Below, piece after piece: positions 6,085 through 31,345 of a stretch of 31,345 bases of DNA. The number at the start of each line of letters is the position of its first letter. Within the stretch, counting starts at the first letter, position 1. This DNA is from Escherichia phage D8. The position numbers were made by a program, and so were the translations under genes. The notes under the pieces are model-generated. The model was given only the letters and a program-made list of their open reading frames with translations. It ran no database searches and was not told the origin of the DNA. The stretch lies in sequence record OM475426, one strand, 5' to 3'.

Positions 6085-6594
6085 ATGATGACGCTGATTA
6101 TTCCGCGAAAGGAGGCTCCCGTGTCCGGTGAGGGTACGGTGGTCATCCCGCAACCGGCAGGCGACGAGCCGGTGATTAAAAACACGTTCTTTTTTCCCGA
6201 TATCGACCCGAAGCGCGTCCGGGAACGTATGCGCCTTGAGCAGACCGTCGCCCCCGCCCGTCTGCGTGAGGCCATCAAGTCAGGCATGGCGGAGACGAAT
6301 GCGGAGCTGTACGAGTACCGCGAACAGAAAATTGCCGCCGGTTTTACGCGTCTGGCGGACGTTCCGGCGGACGACATCGACGGTGAAAGCATCAAAGTTT
6401 TTTACTACGAGCGCGCCGTGTGTGCGATGGCGACCGCGTCGCTTTATGAGCGTTATCGCGGCGTGGATGCCAGTGCGAAAGGCGACAAGAAGGCCGACAG
6501 CATTGACAGCACCATTGATGAGCTGTGGCGGGATATGCGCTGGGCAGTGGCGCGCATCCAGGACAAGCCGCGCTGCATCGTGAGCCAAATCTGA
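6085..6594 (+). CDS. L: Head completion/stabilisation protein (P2 gpL-like), 169 aa
   Basis: ORF 6025-6594; start at MMTLIIP gives 169 aa as in P2 gpL. Confidence 0.8.
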   Translation: MMTLIIPRKEAPVSGEGTVVIPQPAGDEPVIKNTFFFPDIDPKRVRERMRLEQTVAPARLREAIKSGMAETNAELYEYREQKIAAGFTRLADVPADDIDGESIKVFYYERAVCAMATASLYERYRGVDASAKGDKKADSIDSTIDELWRDMRWAVARIQDKPRCIVSQI

Positions 6595-6797
6595 TGAAGA
6601 CCTTTGCGCTACAGGGCGACACGCTCGACGCCATTTGTGTCCGGTATTACGGGCGCACTGAGGGCGTGGTTGAGACCGTGCTCGCCGCAAATTCGGGACT
6701 GGCTGAACTGGGGGCGGTGCTGCCACATGGCACCGCCGTCGAACTGCCCGACGTTCAGACCGCGCCCGTGGCTGAAACTGTCAATCTGTGGGAGTAA
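6594..6797 (+). CDS. X: Tail protein X (P2 gpX-like, LysM-type), 67 aa
   Basis: Start at MKTFALQGDTLDAICVRYYG gives 67 aa as in P2 gpX; ATG overlaps the L stop. Confidence 0.75.
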   Translation: MKTFALQGDTLDAICVRYYGRTEGVVETVLAANSGLAELGAVLPHGTAVELPDVQTAPVAETVNLWE

Positions 6798-6800
6798 CGC

Positions 6801-7082
6801 ATGACAGCAGAAGAAAAAAGCGTCCTGTCGCTTTTCATGATTGGGGTGCTGATTGTTGTCGGCAAGGTGCTTGCCGGTGGTGAACCCATCACCCCGCGTC
6901 TGTTTATCGGGCGCATGTTGCTCGGTGGTTTTGTCTCGATGGTTGCCGGTGTTGTTCTGGTGCAGTTTCCTGACCTGTCACTGCCTGCGGTGTGCGGTAT
7001 CGGCTCCATGCTGGGTATCGCCGGTTATCAGGTGATTGAGATTGCCATTCAGCGCCGTTTTAAGGGCAGGGGGAAACCGTAA
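6801..7082 (+). CDS. Y: Holin (P2 gpY-like), 93 aa
   Basis: 93 aa as P2 Y; hydrophobic transmembrane segments (LSLFMIGVLIVVGKVLAGG; FVSMVAGVVLVQF); precedes endolysin. Confidence 0.8.
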   Translation: MTAEEKSVLSLFMIGVLIVVGKVLAGGEPITPRLFIGRMLLGGFVSMVAGVVLVQFPDLSLPAVCGIGSMLGIAGYQVIEIAIQRRFKGRGKP

Positions 7083-7579
7083 TGCCGGTAATTAACACGC
7101 ATCAGAATATCGCCGCCTTTCTCGACATGCTGGCCGTGTCCGAAGGGACGGCGAATCATCCGCTGACGAAAAACCGGGGCTATGACGTGATAGTCACCGG
7201 ACTGGACGGGAAGCCGGAAATTTTCACCGACTACAGTGACCACCCGTTCGCGCATGGCCGACCGGCGAAGGTGTTTAACCGTCGCGGTGAAAAATCCACG
7301 GCCTCCGGTCGCTATCAGCAGCTTTACCTGTTCTGGCCGCATTACCGCAAACAGCTTGCCCTGCCGGATTTCAGTCCGTTGTCACAGGACAGACTCGCCA
7401 TTCAGTTGATCCGCGAACGCGGTGCGCTGGATGACATCCGGGCGGGATGTATTGAGCGCGCCATTTCACGCTGTCGCAATATCTGGGCGTCCCTGCCGGG
7501 TGCCGGTTACGGTCAGCGTGAGCATTCACTGGAAAAACTGGTCACCGTCTGGCGTACCGCTGGCGGCGTACCGGCTTAA
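7082..7579 (+). CDS. K: Endolysin/lysozyme (P2 gpK-like), 165 aa
   Basis: 165 aa as P2 K; position after holin; start overlaps Y stop. Confidence 0.85.
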   Translation: MPVINTHQNIAAFLDMLAVSEGTANHPLTKNRGYDVIVTGLDGKPEIFTDYSDHPFAHGRPAKVFNRRGEKSTASGRYQQLYLFWPHYRKQLALPDFSPLSQDRLAIQLIRERGALDDIRAGCIERAISRCRNIWASLPGAGYGQREHSLEKLVTVWRTAGGVPA

Positions 7580-26815: not shown

Positions 26816-29084
26816 AGCCTCCGGGCGTTTTGTCCCTCCGTCAGCATTTGCCGCAGGCACCGGTAAGACATTTACCGGTGCTTATGCATGGAACGCGCCA
26901 CGCGAGGCCGTCGGGCGCGAAAGACCCCTTACACGTGACGAGATGCGTCAGGTGCAAGGTGTTTTATCCACGATTAACCGCCTGCCTTACTTTTTGCGTT
27001 CGCTGTTTACTTCACGCTATGACTACATCCGGCGCAATAAAAGCCCGGTGCACGGGTTTTATTTCCTCACATCCACTTTTCAGCGTCGTTTATGGCCGCG
27101 CATTGAGCGTGTGAATCAGCGCCATGAAATGAACACCGACGCGTCGATGCTGTTTCTGGCTGAGCGTGACCACTATGCGCGCCTGCCGGGAATGAATGAC
27201 AAGGAGCTGAAAAAGTTTGCCGCCCGTATCTCATCGCAGCTTTTCATGATGTATGAGGAACTCAGCGATGCCTGGGTGGATGCGCATGGCGAGAAAGAAT
27301 CGCTGTTTACGGATGAGGCGCAGGCTCACCTCTATGGTCATGTTGCTGGCGCTGCACGTGCTTTCAATATTTCCCCGCTTTACTGGAAAAAATACCGTAA
27401 AGGACAGATGACCACGAGGCAGGCATATTCTGCCATTGCCCGTCTGTTTAACGATGAGTGGTGGACTCATCAGCTTAAAGGCCAGCGTATGCGCTGGCAT
27501 GAAGCGTTACTGATAGCTGTCGGGGAGGTCAATAAAGACCGTTCTCCTTATGCCAGTAAACACGCCATTCGTGATGTGCGTGCGCGCCGCCAGGCAAATC
27601 TGGAATTTCTTAAATCGTGTGACCTTGAAAACAGGGAAACCGGCGAGCGCATCGACCTTATCAGTAAGGTGATGGGCAGTATTTCTAATCCTGAAGTTCG
27701 CCGGATGGAGCTGATGAACACCATTGCCGGTATTGAGCGTTACGCCGCCGCAGAGGGTGATGTGGGGATGTTTATCACGCTGACCGCGCCGTCAAAGTAT
27801 CACCCGACACGTCAGGTCAGAAAAGGCGAAAGTAAAACCGTTCAGCTAAATCACGGCTGGAACGATGAGGCATTTAATCCAAAGGATGCGCAGCGTTATC
27901 TCTGCCGCATCTGGAGCCTGATGCGCACGGCATTCAAGGATAATGATTTACAGGTCTACGGTTTGCGTGTCGTCGAGCCACACCACGACGGAACGCCGCA
28001 CTGGCATATGATGCTTTTTTGTAATCCACGCCAGCGTAACCAGATTATCGAAATCATGCGTCGCTACGCGCTCAAAGAGGATGGAGACGAAAGAGGAGCT
28101 GCGCGAAACCGTTTTCAGGCAAAGCACCTTAACCGGGGCGGTGCTGCGGGATATATCGCGAAATACATTTCAAAAAATATCGACGGCTATGCACTGGATG
28201 GTCAGCTCGATAACGATACCGGTAAGCCGCTTAAAGATACTGCCGCGGCTGTTACCGCATGGGCGTCAACGTGGCGCATCCCGCAATTTAAAACGGTTGG
28301 CCTGCCGACAATGGGGGCTTACCGTGAACTACGCAAATTGCCTCGCGGCGTCAGCATTGCTGATGAGTTTGACGAGCGCGTCGAGGCTGCACGCGCCGCC
28401 GCAGACAGTGGTGATTTTGCGTTGTATATCAGCGCGCAGGGTGGGGCAAATGTCCCGCGCGATTGTCAGACTGTCAGGGTCGCCCGTAGCCCGTCGGATG
28501 ACGTTAACGAGTATGAGGAAGAAGTCGAGAGAGTGGTCGGCATTTACGCGCCGCATCTCGGCGCGCGTCATATTCATATCACCAGAACGACGGACTGGCG
28601 CATTGTGCCGAAAGTTCCGGTCGTTGAGCCCTTGACTTTAAAAAGCGGCATCGCCGCGCCTCGGAGTCCTGTCAATAACTGTGGAAAGCTCACCGGTGGT
28701 GATACTTCGTTACCGGCTCCCACGCCTTCTGAGCACGCCGCAGCAGTGCTTAATCTGGTTGATGACGGTGTTATCGAATGGAATGACCCGGAGGTCGTGA
28801 GGGCGCTCAGAAGCGCATTAAAACACGGCCTGAGAAGACCAAACCGTCAGCAAAGAAACGGAAGCCCGTTAAAACCGCATGAAATAGCGCCATCGGCCAG
28901 ACTGACCCGGTCGGAACGAATGCAAATTACCCGTATCCGCGTTGACCTTGCTCAGAACGGTATCAGGCCGCAGCGATGGGAGCTTGAGGCGCTGGCGCGA
29001 GGGGCTACCATAACATATGGCAGGAAGACGTTTATATATCCTACAATCGATGTGTGTTTGGGATATTCTGCTTTTACAAAATGA
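26805..29084 (+). CDS. A: Replication initiation protein A (rolling-circle nickase, P2 gpA-like), about 759 aa
   Basis: Start at MAVKASGRF...; length about 760 aa as P2 gpA (761 aa); HUH-like motif (PHWHMMLF) and Tyr-containing motif (AGYIAKYISKN) consistent with a rolling-circle initiator. Confidence 0.85.
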   Translation: MAVKASGRFVPPSAFAAGTGKTFTGAYAWNAPREAVGRERPLTRDEMRQVQGVLSTINRLPYFLRSLFTSRYDYIRRNKSPVHGFYFLTSTFQRRLWPRIERVNQRHEMNTDASMLFLAERDHYARLPGMNDKELKKFAARISSQLFMMYEELSDAWVDAHGEKESLFTDEAQAHLYGHVAGAARAFNISPLYWKKYRKGQMTTRQAYSAIARLFNDEWWTHQLKGQRMRWHEALLIAVGEVNKDRSPYASKHAIRDVRARRQANLEFLKSCDLENRETGERIDLISKVMGSISNPEVRRMELMNTIAGIERYAAAEGDVGMFITLTAPSKYHPTRQVRKGESKTVQLNHGWNDEAFNPKDAQRYLCRIWSLMRTAFKDNDLQVYGLRVVEPHHDGTPHWHMMLFCNPRQRNQIIEIMRRYALKEDGDERGAARNRFQAKHLNRGGAAGYIAKYISKNIDGYALDGQLDNDTGKPLKDTAAAVTAWASTWRIPQFKTVGLPTMGAYRELRKLPRGVSIADEFDERVEAARAAADSGDFALYISAQGGANVPRDCQTVRVARSPSDDVNEYEEEVERVVGIYAPHLGARHIHITRTTDWRIVPKVPVVEPLTLKSGIAAPRSPVNNCGKLTGGDTSLPAPTPSEHAAAVLNLVDDGVIEWNDPEVVRALRSALKHGLRRPNRQQRNGSPLKPHEIAPSARLTRSERMQITRIRVDLAQNGIRPQRWELEALARGATITYGRKTFIYPTIDVCLGYSAFTK

Positions 29085-29199
29085 ATGGTGTCGGAACATA
29101 ATATTTTCAGGTGTTCAAAGAGTTTGTTCTGATGTTCTTGCTATTTTTGTTTCTTTTGATGAAAATGGCGTCTTTAAAATTGGTTAAAAGGTGTGTTGT

Positions 29200-29688
29200 A
29201 TGGATGGTTTATGGGAAAAAATATCGTCTTATAATATATTTAACAATCTCTTTCCCGGTGCTTTGTTTATTTATTTGTTTGAGCGGGCAACCAATGTGAT
29301 ATTATCCACAGATGATGTTGTTAAGAATGTGGTACTTTACTATTTTACGGGGATAATTATCGGAAGGATTGGGTCTATTGTTTTTGAGCCTGTGTTGAAA
29401 TTTTTGGGGCTGGTAAAATTTGTTCCATATGAGGAATATATCTCAGCATGTAGAAAGGATAATAAAATAGAGCTTCTTCAAGAAACTGCAAATATGTATA
29501 GGACGTTATTCTCTATGTCCTTGGTTTTTTTGTTTTCTTTGTTTTTTGTTTCGTTTGTAGTTGGTGGTGATTACATGGCGTCGAAATGGATTTCATTGTT
29601 TTTGATTTTTGTTTTTATTGTGTCGTACGTTAAGCAAATTAAGTTTATTACATTAAGAGTGAGTAAGGCTAATAATAAGCTGCCCTAA
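29200..29688 (+). CDS. Cargo ORF: small polytopic membrane protein (about 4 TM helices), about 162 aa, unknown function
   Basis: AT-rich; RBS aaggtg before ATG at 29200; hydrophobic segments FPGALFIYLF, VVLYYFTGIIIGRIGSIVF, LFSMSLVFLFSLFFVSFVVGG, WISLFLIFVFIVSYV. Confidence 0.55.
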   Translation: MDGLWEKISSYNIFNNLFPGALFIYLFERATNVILSTDDVVKNVVLYYFTGIIIGRIGSIVFEPVLKFLGLVKFVPYEEYISACRKDNKIELLQETANMYRTLFSMSLVFLFSLFFVSFVVGGDYMASKWISLFLIFVFIVSYVKQIKFITLRVSKANNKLP

Positions 29689-29696
29689 GGCAGCTT
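29677..29696. terminator. Bidirectional hairpin terminator between the convergent cargo genes
   Basis: Perfect 8-bp stem aagctgcc/ctaa/ggcagctt spanning the stop codon of the plus-strand ORF and lying 7 nt from the minus-strand ORF stop; T/A-rich flank on the minus-strand side. Confidence 0.55.
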
Positions 29697-29702
29697 AACG
29701 AA

Positions 29703-30788
29703 TTATTCTTCAGTCTTATAACTCCTTGCGTATGAGCGTGGGGTGACTGCAGTCCAGCCATCTCTGGCGGGGGCATTACTAGAATGGCGTTTATTGGTGC
29801 CTTCTGTGGCGACTACTTTGGCTCCACGCCTTGTAAAAGCATTAATGACCGCTTGATGAGGGTGTTTATCGGAATCCGGTGCGCATGATATAAATGCACA
29901 AACACCACTTCTTCCTCCTTCGCTTACAATATTTCCAACGAGCTTATTTAGCACCGCTGGACCGATGTTTCTCCTGCTTCCATGGTGGGGCACTTGAATA
30001 AATGATAATGAGTTATTATTTATATGATCAGCAGCCATATCTAATGCAGTTATTCCTGCATCACCTGTAAATACTAGTGTTTTATTGTCAATTTCAATTT
30101 TTAATATAACGCTTGAATTGTTTTGTGCAGTAGTTGTGTCCTTGTCATCAATTCCCTCATCAGAGAACCAATCAGCAATATACTCGACTTGTTCTTTGGC
30201 TTTCTCAAAAAAGTAGTTATATGCATCTGTACCACTGGTTGCAGTTGTTTCTGCTTTTTCAGGCATTCTTGCAAAATCGGGGATTAATGTTTCATAGTAT
30301 GCTTGTGTTGGTCCAATAACAACCAGTTTAGAATTGTCCCAAGTCCTGCCTTGAAAAGGCTCCTTAATTTCTATTCCTTTTTTTTTCGCTGATTTGACGG
30401 CATCATAGGCTTTTTGTAGATTATCTTGTATACGTCTGGCAATACTTGCATCTGTTATCCTTCCATCAGCAAATTCCTGCGCGAGATTTTCATTATGCTC
30501 CCAAGGCTGGTGAATCCAGAACTCTTTGACTTCCGCATTCTCAATCACATGCTCAAGGCCGCCAGCATGGTCGCTATCTGGATGCGTGGATATGAGTAAG
30601 TCAATAGTATTTGTATGATAGTATTTCTGTAAATGTTCAATTATTTGTGGACCAGTGCTTGCGTACCCCGCATCAATTACGACAACTTTTTGCTCTGCTC
30701 TTGTTCCGTGGAGGTTGCCCCATCTTATGCAGATAGCATCTCCACTTTTTTTTTCTCCAACTGCTAAGAAATCAACTTCGTAACCCAT
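29703..30788 (-). CDS. Cargo ORF: metallo-beta-lactamase-fold hydrolase (possible nuclease), 361 aa
   Basis: All five MBL-fold motifs in order: VVVIDAG (Asp), STHPDSDHAGG (HxDxDH variant of HxHxDH), FWIHQ (His), VFTGDAG (Asp), VPHHGS (His); AT-rich; RBS-like aaggg before ATG; located where P2 carries tin/old. Confidence 0.75.
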   Translation of the reverse strand: MGYEVDFLAVGEKKSGDAICIRWGNLHGTRAEQKVVVIDAGYASTGPQIIEHLQKYYHTNTIDLLISTHPDSDHAGGLEHVIENAEVKEFWIHQPWEHNENLAQEFADGRITDASIARRIQDNLQKAYDAVKSAKKKGIEIKEPFQGRTWDNSKLVVIGPTQAYYETLIPDFARMPEKAETTATSGTDAYNYFFEKAKEQVEYIADWFSDEGIDDKDTTTAQNNSSVILKIEIDNKTLVFTGDAGITALDMAADHINNNSLSFIQVPHHGSRRNIGPAVLNKLVGNIVSEGGRSGVCAFISCAPDSDKHPHQAVINAFTRRGAKVVATEGTNKRHSSNAPARDGWTAVTPRSYARSYKTEE

Positions 30789-31128
30789 TCTTGTGCCCTT
30801 CTGTAGTTTTCAACTTTATGTAAGTGTTGTACGCCAAAGTAGTGCAGGACTTGATTAGGCAATCAAAGACCTTTAAAACAATATCAGGATGCATAAATAT
30901 TCGTGTCTAGATCAATAGATTAGATCGAGTTTTTGATAATCAATTTGCGCCTGCTTCTTGATAACCGTTGTTAGTGTAAATTTTGCGCAATGTAATTGGC
31001 AAATCACTGCGATATGAGTTGCGTGCCAGCCAGCTTTAATATGCAGACTTTGCTATATCTTTCTACACGATTTTTATTTTCAGATGTGCAAGCATTAGGC
31101 GCATTGTTTTGCATGCGTTGGAGCTGCT

Positions 31129-31220
31129 AGTTTAGATCGTGCTCCGTCAGAATAGGCGCGACACCATGGTGGTCATGCACCTGCATTAAAACCGACCCAT
31201 GAAGCGGGCGGGCGAGGCGG
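31129..31220. repeat. Second copy of the 92-bp terminal direct repeat (identical to window bases 1-92), includes the first half of the cos-like sequence
   Basis: Exact match read from sequence; divergence begins at 31221. Confidence 0.9.
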
Positions 31221-31345
31221 CATTAGATATGGCTGCTGATCATATAAATAATAACTCATTATCATTTATTCAAGTGCCCCACCATGGAAGCAGGAGAAAC
31301 ATCGGTCCAGCGGTGCTAAATAAGCTCGTTGGAAATATTGTAAGC
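31221..31345. repeat. 125-bp inverted duplication: reverse complement of 29922-30046 (internal to the MBL-fold gene)
   Basis: Reverse complement of gcttacaatatttccaacgagc...cagccatatctaatg (29922-30046) equals 31221-31345 exactly as far as I can read. Confidence 0.85.

Follow-up and report, generated by a model that had tools for sequence, protein, structure and literature searches.

A Csx27-like membrane protein gene and a ComEC-like metallo-hydrolase gene in the cargo hotspot of Escherichia phage D8

In the 31,345-nucleotide genome of Escherichia phage D8 (sequence record OM475426; this whole stretch is referred to below as the window), a gene for a 162-amino acid membrane protein (WP_021533448) faces a convergent gene for a 361-amino acid hydrolase of the metallo-β-lactamase (MBL) fold (WP_021533447). 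We found that this locus is a phage-borne case of the combination of a Csx27-like membrane protein with a ComEC-like MBL, which is already catalogued as PDC-M48 and represents the core of 6A-MBL. The identity of the two proteins and their partnership are hardly in doubt, and an anti-phage role of the pair is probable; the complete explanation that we favour, mechanism included, of a two-gene anti-phage module that is borne by mobile elements and acts through a membrane effector, is put forward tentatively, and we stop slightly short of expecting it to hold in full.

The two genes as a conserved unit

Both proteins were recognised from end to end by PADLOC profiles, the membrane protein by PDC-M48A (PDLC04670; E = 6.4e-49, residues 1-159 against positions 1-162 of 164) and the MBL by PDC-M48B (PDLC04676; E = 6.4e-99, residues 3-355 against positions 5-353 of 357), and PADLOC files the two under one candidate system, PDC-M48, as its A and B components. 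The prefix PDC-M designates a multi-gene phage-defence candidate, PDC-M48 itself being a computational candidate only. The window resembles the other members in that its two genes are adjacent, and differs in that they are convergent, most members being co-directional. A literature search for PDC-M48 and for the WP accessions found no mention of them.

One genome per species (185,579 species) was scanned with an alignment of the membrane-protein family, which yielded 80 loci, spread over about 15 phyla of bacteria and one archaeon (loci are numbered below with the prefix L). Neighbours were counted with an iterated MBL profile on six-frame open reading frames (ORFs), over 82 loci once the E. 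coli loci L001 and L002 were included. An MBL gene lies within 2.4 kb of the membrane gene in 79 of the 82, and the two are adjacent (less than 300 nucleotides apart) in 63: the membrane gene precedes the MBL gene on the same strand in 42 loci and follows it on the same strand in 17, while 4 loci are convergent. The 59 co-directional pairs are mostly abutting or overlapping, and three of the four convergent ones are the enterobacterial loci L001 to L003. A further convergent pair was found on a 5.5-kb Citrobacter plasmid, where it adjoins ccdAB, and a further co-directional one on a 13.7-kb Clostridium perfringens plasmid; islands harbour further copies, beside type I restriction-modification systems and Tn7-like cargo (L084, L085). 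Among 5426 complete E. coli genomes, 45 carry the segment, in two alleles about 72% identical at the DNA level, and both genes are present in all 45. Since 59 of the 63 adjacent pairs are co-directional, the convergent layout is an enterobacterial peculiarity, a local rearrangement of a normally operonic pair. The preliminary description of this DNA, made from the sequence alone, had read the convergence as a sign of two independent morons and had named a co-occurrence analysis across genomes as a check; that analysis, as given above, together with the E. coli counts and the single PADLOC system, argues for the opposite.

The window is a complete P2-like (Peduovirus) genome with phage gene order, and the two-gene cargo sits between replication gene A and cos, i.e. 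at the P2 gpA-gpQ 'old/tin' locus, which agrees with the earlier placement of a small membrane protein in a prophage cargo hotspot. This locus is a hotspot for anti-phage cargo of E. coli P2-like prophages (Rousset et al., PMC9122126), and Table S5 of the same study lists WP_021533448 and WP_021533447 at the gpA-gpQ hotspot as 'hypothetical + Lactamase_B'. The interval from gene A to cos holds these two genes only. Three isolated phages, Peduovirus P24E6b and the Escherichia phages 11W and 12W, encode an identical (100%) membrane protein at the same position, and 22 complete E. coli genomes have the two-gene segment at an identity of 99% or more. In the 72%-identity allele, carried by other P2-like prophages of E. 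coli (L002), the MBL gene is followed by an extra gene (6826-7263), for the 145-amino acid hypothetical protein WP_001752367, which the Rousset table pairs with a further small gene, WP_023908566.

The membrane protein and its place in the Csx27 superfamily

Csx27 was reportedly described by Smargon in 2017 as a four-transmembrane accessory protein of type VI-B1 CRISPR systems, and its superfamily is said to have been tied computationally by Makarova, Gao, Zhang and Koonin in 2019 to ComEC-like competence components, E1/E2/JAB and WYL. Comparison by hhalign of the family of the window protein (the A family, alignment A1) with Csx27-like proteins (alignment A5) gave a probability of 96.2% (E = 2.2e-9) over 121 columns covering helices 1 to 3. 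The PADLOC Csx27 model matched all 30 members of the A5 alignment (best E = 6e-18), 15 of which were matched by PDC-M48A, and it directly matched 15 of 32 A-family members (best E = 1.7e-4); the window protein alone reached E = 0.26 only. The Csx27-like membrane proteins of the 6A loci dealt with below match the PADLOC models Csx27 and tm_4, both of them type VI-B CRISPR accessory models. As a search with the Csx27-like operon proteins returned no protein named Csx27, the link is drawn from the PADLOC Csx27 model and from the comparison of profiles.

The A family and Csx27 have in common four predicted membrane helices, an N-terminal motif (an aromatic residue, N or D, four variable residues, L, any residue, P and G) followed by YYFxG or GY(V)xG, and a Y/F-R motif before helix 3. 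The genomic partners are likewise those reported for the Csx27 family, namely the ComEC-like MBL (in the 79 loci counted above), E2-E1-JAB (about 12 loci) and WYL (L004). The WYL-domain gene of L004 (4873-5763), in a Nitrospirales metagenome-assembled genome, is situated between the divergent MBL gene and the membrane gene. What separates the window from Csx27 in the strict sense, i.e. in the type VI-B1 context with Cas13b, is that the P2-like window contains no Cas13b, no CRISPR array and no large HEPN protein, and that its protein falls into a distinct, shorter subfamily (about 162 amino acids) with invariant residues of its own. Genomic context and profile comparison together indicate that the membrane protein is a member of a short, remote subfamily of the Csx27 superfamily, and not an orphan.

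An AlphaFold2 model built with 32 homologues (predicted local distance difference test score, pLDDT, 88.7) is all-helical, with helices at residues 10-31, 40-68, 77-86, 89-122 and 126-157. By Kyte-Doolittle hydropathy, helices 3 and 4 are clear and helix 2 is probable. Four predicted transmembrane helices and a size of about 160-250 amino acids, which characterise the Csx27 superfamily, were thus found, helix 1 being only marginally hydrophobic (family-wide median of the best 19-residue window, 1.32). Family-wide, loop 2 and the C-terminus carry a net charge of +2.6 each and loops 1 and 3 are negative; because this distribution fits, a four-transmembrane topology with both termini inside (N-in/C-in) is predicted as the most likely one. 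The preliminary description had the protein as consisting almost entirely of hydrophobic helices: the four-helix membrane protein is borne out by model and hydropathy, but the wording was overstated, as a loop of about 35 residues (67-103) is polar. Four polar motifs are invariant (EKISSYNIFNNLxPG, YYFxGxIISRIGS, LSETNNxYRT and SYxKQ), with their residues mostly in segments assigned to the cytoplasm, that is, the N-terminus, loop 2 and the C-terminal end of helix 4.

Pfam and NCBIfam gave nothing above threshold for this protein (holin, ABC_membrane and DUF matches at E = 0.05-0.35), and PHROGs gave only the unnamed family phrog_11864. A phage holin was considered and rejected: Phage_holin_2 matched at E = 0.049 with 14.3 bits against a cut-off of 32, and the position of the gene, in the cargo hotspot, is some 20 kb away from the lysis genes (ORFs near 6.8-8.5 kb, assigned by P2 gene order). 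With S10, S59, K7 and K145 invariant, an intramembrane protease that activates the MBL is remotely conceivable; the protein has no catalytic His, Asp or Cys and no similarity to rhomboid, signal-peptidase or CPBP proteins. Many family members are named 'phosphohistidine phosphatase' in NCBI and UniRef; neither Pfam nor NCBIfam detected a phosphatase domain in the membrane protein, and the name is almost certainly a propagated mis-annotation.

That the AT-rich ORF of about 162 codons is a real gene, as had been proposed, is borne out by several lines of evidence. The frame is open from 29191 or 29200, the NCBI Prokaryotic Genome Annotation Pipeline (PGAP) chooses the ATG at 29200, giving the same 162-residue protein, and a Shine-Dalgarno sequence precedes this codon. 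The ATG and an AGGTG at the same spacing are kept in L002 (64% amino acid identity) and L003 (60%), and the N-terminal motif opens every aligned homologue, across many phyla. The ratio of non-synonymous to synonymous substitution rates (dN/dS) is 0.17 against L002 and 0.12 against L003, and the GC content is 32-33%, compared with 51-59% in gene A. We retrieved 176 word-indexed homologues, and the family comprises 1221 clusters at 50% identity (E ≤ 1e-3, among 1.84 billion representatives), the best 150 of which are all stand-alone proteins of about 160-216 amino acids. An overlapping 62-codon frame (29111-29299), which had earlier been thought to leave the start ambiguous, is interrupted by stops in both L002 (four) and L003 (one); these stops rule it out as a gene or a leader peptide and, because of them, the start at ATG 29200 is unambiguous.

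The MBL partner, 6A-MBL and possible mechanisms

The best solved-structure match of the MBL is the MBL domain of ComEC (9ic4; E = 8e-15), and NCBI names the protein 'ComEC/Rec2 family'. Its invariant residues include D39, H69, D71, D73, H74, H93, D243, H268 and H269, so that the metal-binding and catalytic motifs are kept and the enzyme is apparently catalytically intact. PADLOC MBL models filed under LmuA (E = 5.6e-28), RTasMBL (E = 3.9e-21) and Avs1a (E = 1.3e-15) matched it, and so did the NCBIfam Avs1a model (E = 2.5e-17), yet with 62.7 bits against a cut-off of 420. The LmuA-filed model aligns to residues 13-283 with no large gaps, and relative to ComEC the window MBL has inserts in common with the Lamassu, DRT and Avs1 MBLs. 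In the structural model (pLDDT 88.7) a single loop is predicted to be disordered (182-195, inside the variable insert 177-206), the other insert being modelled as two helices (113-136). The MBLs associated with Lamassu, DRT and Avs1 are zymogen Zn-dependent DNases that are un-gated when a partner protease cuts two inserted loops (PMC12799240, PMC12642450), and, judging from its homology to them, the window MBL is likely a metal-dependent DNase. No signal peptide was detected at its N-terminus (MGYEVDFLAVGEKK), which suggests that the enzyme is probably cytoplasmic; its C-terminus is acidic (...SYKTEE). PHROGs assigns the MBL to phrog_7043, labelled 'tail protein' (E = 8.5e-156), through profile positions 619-901 of 1077 only, and this label probably stems from fused or chimeric members.

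Homologous ComEC-like MBLs with inserts are found in the protease-gated pro-nuclease systems, i.e. HamM/HamMAB, Avs1a and other Avs MBLs, Lamassu-MBL, DRT-MBL and CanC/Canu (Tuck 2025, PMC12799240; Evans 2025, PMC12642450). The window differs from these in that no protease, trypsin-like or caspase-like, is present in the hotspot, the sole neighbour of the MBL being the 162-residue membrane protein. In the protease-gated systems the active site is blocked by a pair of disordered insertions that bear conserved cleavage residues; of the inserts of the window MBL, one is predicted to be disordered and the other is modelled as helical.

The closest parallel is 6A-MBL, which is said to have been validated against phages by van den Berg et al. 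in 2024 (Cell Host Microbe 32:1427). About 12 of the 80 genome loci have an MBL gene followed by a gene for a fusion of Prok-E2_A, ThiF and Prok-JAB (about 770 amino acids) and then by an A-family membrane gene. The first two genes of one such locus (L010) scored above the equivalog cut-offs of the NCBIfam 'anti-phage 6A-MBL system' models (359 against 220 bits and 513 against 320 bits); these were the only two such models to match, and the membrane protein of L010 matched no NCBIfam 6A-MBL model. The designation 6A goes back to the operon type '6a', described as a two-gene system (Iyer et al. 2006, PMC1779556), and the membrane gene is outside both definitions checked (Iyer 2006, NCBIfam). 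An unbiased metagenome scan for the E2-E1-JAB (Cap2_3) protein gave a separate set of 80 loci, 67 of which have an MBL gene upstream of the fusion. The gene directly after the fusion usually encodes a multi-transmembrane protein of 200-260 amino acids, belonging to one of several families; a Csx27-like membrane gene is present in 49 of the 80 loci and the A family proper in 4. One metagenomic 6A-MBL clade (L133-L153) shows the order membrane gene, MBL, E2-E1-JAB, with the Csx27-like gene upstream, and the membrane gene thus stays linked while the gene order varies. We suggest that annotations of PDC-M48 and 6A-MBL loci include the membrane gene.

Other genes occupy the position after the fusion as well. 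A patatin-like phospholipase gene was found there in at least three loci, L105 (2475-3629), L122 (4324-5619) and L124 (6135-7439), and by motif only in L132 (about 6270-7508); transmembrane segments were predicted for the products in L122, L124 and L132, and none in L105. A second family of four-transmembrane proteins, of about 210 amino acids and with the motifs LVFLRxRxxLPGxR, WYxxIY and HKxFLLxRD, is encoded in L083 (5102-5725), L084 (5095-5760), L085 (5107-5739) and L113 (6159-6788). It partners MBLs that are 50% identical to that of the window, and in L113 it takes third place in a 6A-MBL operon. Homology between this family and the A family was not significant (hhalign probability 0.1), and we treat it as an analogous or very remote partner; no match to it was found in PADLOC, in Pfam (one member scanned) or in precomputed Pfam records.

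The MBLs linked to E2-E1-JAB (L088-L167 and L006-L061) have tails rich in Gly, Ala and Ser that end in ...TYG, ...HG or ...NG plus 0-5 residues. The two-gene MBLs, in contrast, have no Gly-ending tail, those of the window and of most of its class ending in acidic residues (...KTEE). The Gly-ending tails resemble ubiquitin-like precursors, as would be expected if JAB trimmed them before adenylation by E1, in the manner of the CD-NTases of type II cyclic oligonucleotide-based anti-phage signalling systems (CBASS), the conjugation of which served as our comparison (PMC11601596). The window thus resembles 6A-MBL in the homologous class of its MBL enzyme, in the Csx27-superfamily membrane protein that most Cap2_3 loci possess, and in the A-family gene that follows Cap2_3 in about 12 genome and 4 metagenome loci. 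It differs in having no E2-E1-JAB fusion (NF058523, 6A-MBL_cap2_3) and no Gly-ending conjugation tail, and in the score of its MBL against NF058524, which is 33.8 bits against a cut-off of 220 and covers residues 48-88 only. From these comparisons the window pair emerges as the minimal, Cap2/3-less form of the 6A-MBL module, without the defining features of 6A-MBL itself; it relates to 6A-MBL as type I CBASS does to type II, with the same core and no conjugation add-on.

A small membrane protein together with a cytoplasmic, nucleic-acid-directed partner also recalls RexAB of lambda, Csx28 of type VI-B2 CRISPR systems and KwaA/KwaB of Kiwa. In these systems, an inner-membrane protein of about 140-200 amino acids with several transmembrane segments and its cytoplasmic partner exclude phages, and RexAB is prophage-borne. 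The window protein has no meaningful sequence similarity to them, and the partners RexA, Cas13b and KwaB are unrelated to MBL enzymes; KwaB (DUF4868) is absent from the window and KwaA did not match the window protein. The CBASS 4TM effector model matched 1 of 32 A-family members (E = 0.014). A Csx28 pore is cited in PMC11662929.

As to function, phage exclusion or abortive infection, to which the preliminary description had also pointed, seems the most sensible assignment. In a lysogen, each gene would be expressed from its own promoter and the two proteins would associate in a latent complex at the inner membrane, on its cytoplasmic side. When another phage infects, the MBL, presumed to be a DNase on account of its homology to ComEC and HamM/Avs1a, would be switched on, and the membrane protein would execute or gate the response by ion leak or depolarisation, like RexB or Csx28; either the cell under attack or the incoming genome would be disabled before progeny arise (abortive infection or exclusion). 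That the membrane protein acts in this way, as a membrane-acting gate or effector downstream of the MBL, is a serious though doubtful proposition. We favour it as the effector because the slot after Cap2_3 is swappable, being filled by several membrane-protein families and at times by patatin, because MBLs 50% identical to that of the window pair with a different four-transmembrane family, and because the MBL of 6A is the conjugated component, like the upstream enzyme in CBASS. Patatin-like phospholipases are classic defence effectors. A further reading, in which the two proteins would be a self-sufficient sensor-effector pair with a novel kind of coupling and the MBL, upstream like the CD-NTase of CBASS and in 6A systems even primed through ubiquitin-like conjugation, would open a Csx27-type gate by contact or through a nucleic-acid-derived product, we consider unlikely. 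If it were true, the P2-borne pair would be a minimal model, native to E. coli, for the superfamily that includes Csx27, and would explain the function of Csx27, a question open since 2017.

Several points weigh against a membrane effector that acts after the MBL. Loci with patatin in the slot are few, and in L122, where a second MBL gene comes next, the patatin gene may be part of an adjoining module. Those relatives of the MBL that are best characterised act as terminal effectors in their own right (DNases), and a further effector, in the membrane, is then less necessary. The membrane protein has no recognisable ligand-binding domain, the structure search gave generic helical-hairpin matches only, and the polar motifs, in their strong conservation, are more reminiscent of a surface for specific binding or regulation than of a generic pore. 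For a Csx27 protein the sole experimental finding, as cited in PMC11662929, is the down-regulation of its partner nuclease Cas13b, which fits a regulator better than an effector. The pair WP_021533448 and WP_021533447 is absent from the table of tested systems of Rousset et al. (PMC9122126), and our literature search found no experiment on it or on any two-gene PDC-M48 locus.

In the main rival explanation, though it is on balance rather unlikely, the membrane protein might be a membrane-embedded sensor or restraint that holds the MBL DNase inactive until envelope perturbation or DNA injection frees or activates it to degrade the DNA of the phage, or DNA of any origin; KwaA in Kiwa, ZorAB in Zorya and Csx27 repressing Cas13b would be its analogues. 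The relatives of the MBL are latent, gated DNases in need of an activating partner; the window MBL has their inserts, aligns with the LmuA-filed model over the span given above and has a predicted disordered loop in its variable insert, and, as the hotspot contains no protease, some other activator or restraint is needed. A restraint would also suit the reported down-regulation by Csx27 of its nuclease partner (PMC11662929) and the location of the invariant polar residues in segments assigned mainly to the cytoplasm. KwaA was weakly matched by 2 of 32 family members (best E = 0.0017), but such matches could reflect transmembrane composition alone. Patatin and unrelated membrane families in the same slot are typical of effectors and not of sensors, and the target of the Cap2/3-like enzyme in 6A is the MBL, which thus takes the position that the upstream, signal-side enzyme has in CBASS; both points speak for the membrane protein as effector and against its being a restraint.

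The remaining alternatives are less compatible with the comparative data. A split ComEC would combine a Csx27-family channel for single-stranded DNA with an MBL that degrades the DNA passing there, incoming phage DNA being destroyed at entry, a hypothesis said to have been advanced by Makarova, Gao, Zhang and Koonin in 2019, as cited in PMC7642515. ComEC is a membrane channel domain fused to an MBL domain, the ComEC nuclease domain is the nearest solved fold of the window MBL, the NCBI name of which also points to ComEC, and the associations with MBL, E2-E1-JAB and WYL (in L004) are those reported for the Csx27 family. Such a conduit is nevertheless improbable, since the window MBL is probably cytoplasmic, whereas the MBL domain of ComEC acts outside the membrane, since a four-helix protein of 162 amino acids with two poorly conserved helices is a small channel scaffold unless oligomeric, and since a patatin phospholipase, as found in the same slot, could not serve as a channel for DNA. 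An addiction module, i.e. a toxin-antitoxin-like cassette that stabilises its phage, plasmid or island and has no part in defence, would account for the occurrence on prophages and on very small plasmids (as beside ccdAB in Citrobacter) and for the tight linkage with variable gene order, which resembles toxin-antitoxin cassettes. We judge it very unlikely in view of the position in the P2 hotspot, the copies beside type I restriction-modification and Tn7-like cargo, and the related 6A-MBL, which NCBIfam treats as anti-phage and which is reportedly phage-validated; many defence systems are toxin-antitoxin-like too, so that the two readings are not exclusive. As for a stand-alone superinfection-exclusion or holin-like protein beside an unrelated MBL gene, the convergent orientation, the promoter-like sites of each gene and the weak Phage_holin_2 match would fit, but an MBL linkage that is near-universal over some 15 phyla and mostly operonic, the joint presence of both genes in every E. 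coli carrier, and a holin score far below threshold in a gene far from the lysis genes make an independent moron scarcely credible.

We know of no mechanism established for the membrane proteins of the Csx27 family, which accompany Cas13b, 6A-MBL and about 1000 two-gene MBL modules. With two genes in 1.6 kb on a cultivable E. coli P2-like phage, the pair offers a convenient handle on their function, and on the questions of how a small membrane protein cooperates with a ComEC-like nuclease, whether MBL 'pro-nucleases' have non-proteolytic activators, and what the E2-E1-JAB add-on contributes in 6A-MBL.

The intergenic hairpin and other features of the window

The features located in the window are compiled in Table 1.

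Table 1. Coordinates of the cargo genes, their putative signals and neighbouring features in the window
Feature	Position	Strand	Remarks
Membrane-protein gene	29200..29688	+	162 amino acids, ATG to TAA; four-helix inner-membrane protein, PADLOC PDC-M48A, Csx27 superfamily, WP_021533448
Shine-Dalgarno sequence AAGGTG	29188..29193	+	6 nucleotides 5' of ATG 29200; read from the sequence
Sigma-70-like promoter candidate	29073..29102	+	TTTACA, 18-nucleotide spacer, CATAAT; consensus match 10/12, the best of the region; overlaps the stop codon of gene A
Perfect hairpin	29676..29697		9-base-pair stem (arms 29676-29684 and 29689-29697), 4-nucleotide loop CTAA
ComEC-like MBL-fold metallo-hydrolase gene	29703..30788	-	361 amino acids; PDC-M48B, WP_021533447; Pfam Lactamase_B, E = 2.4e-13
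Two promoter-like sites 5' of the MBL gene	31002-30973 and 30909-30880	-	9/12 each; weak consensus match
Portal and terminase genes	0.27-3.1 kb	-	P2-like gene order

The two convergent stop codons are 14 nucleotides apart and, as had been observed, a single perfect hairpin separates the genes; its nine perfect base pairs give a folding energy of about -14 to -17 kcal/mol on either strand (z = -3.2), and its loop contains the TAA stop codon of the membrane-protein gene. L002 has retained the hairpin, and so has L003, where the sequence of the stem differs. A terminator scan missed it because it lacks a T-run; the hairpin is likely a bidirectional terminator or a stabiliser of 3' ends. Its left arm and loop (29676-29688) coincide with the last three codons and the stop (K-L-P-stop); a C-terminal ...KLP or ...ELP is kept in 7 of 8 aligned enterobacterial homologues, and this conservation may reflect selection on RNA or DNA structure and not on the protein.

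The portal and terminase genes are followed in the window by capsid, lysis, tail, integrase and regulator genes and by the replication gene A, which ends at 29084. Between the MBL start and cos lie about 430 nucleotides of AT-rich non-coding DNA (30789-31219), with ORFs of 40-44 amino acids only, and an Rfam scan of 28800-31345 found no RNA family at E ≤ 0.1. The final 126 nucleotides (31220-31345) are a perfect inverted copy of 29922-30047, inside the MBL gene; the complete genomes diverge at 31220, where the match ends, and the break point is within the cos sequence, between GGCGAGGCGG and GGAAAGCAC. Positions 1-92 repeat 31129-31219. The inverted end and the terminal repeat have the look of an artefact, a fold-back or chimera formed where the virion DNA physically ends at cos, combined with a terminal overlap of the assembly.

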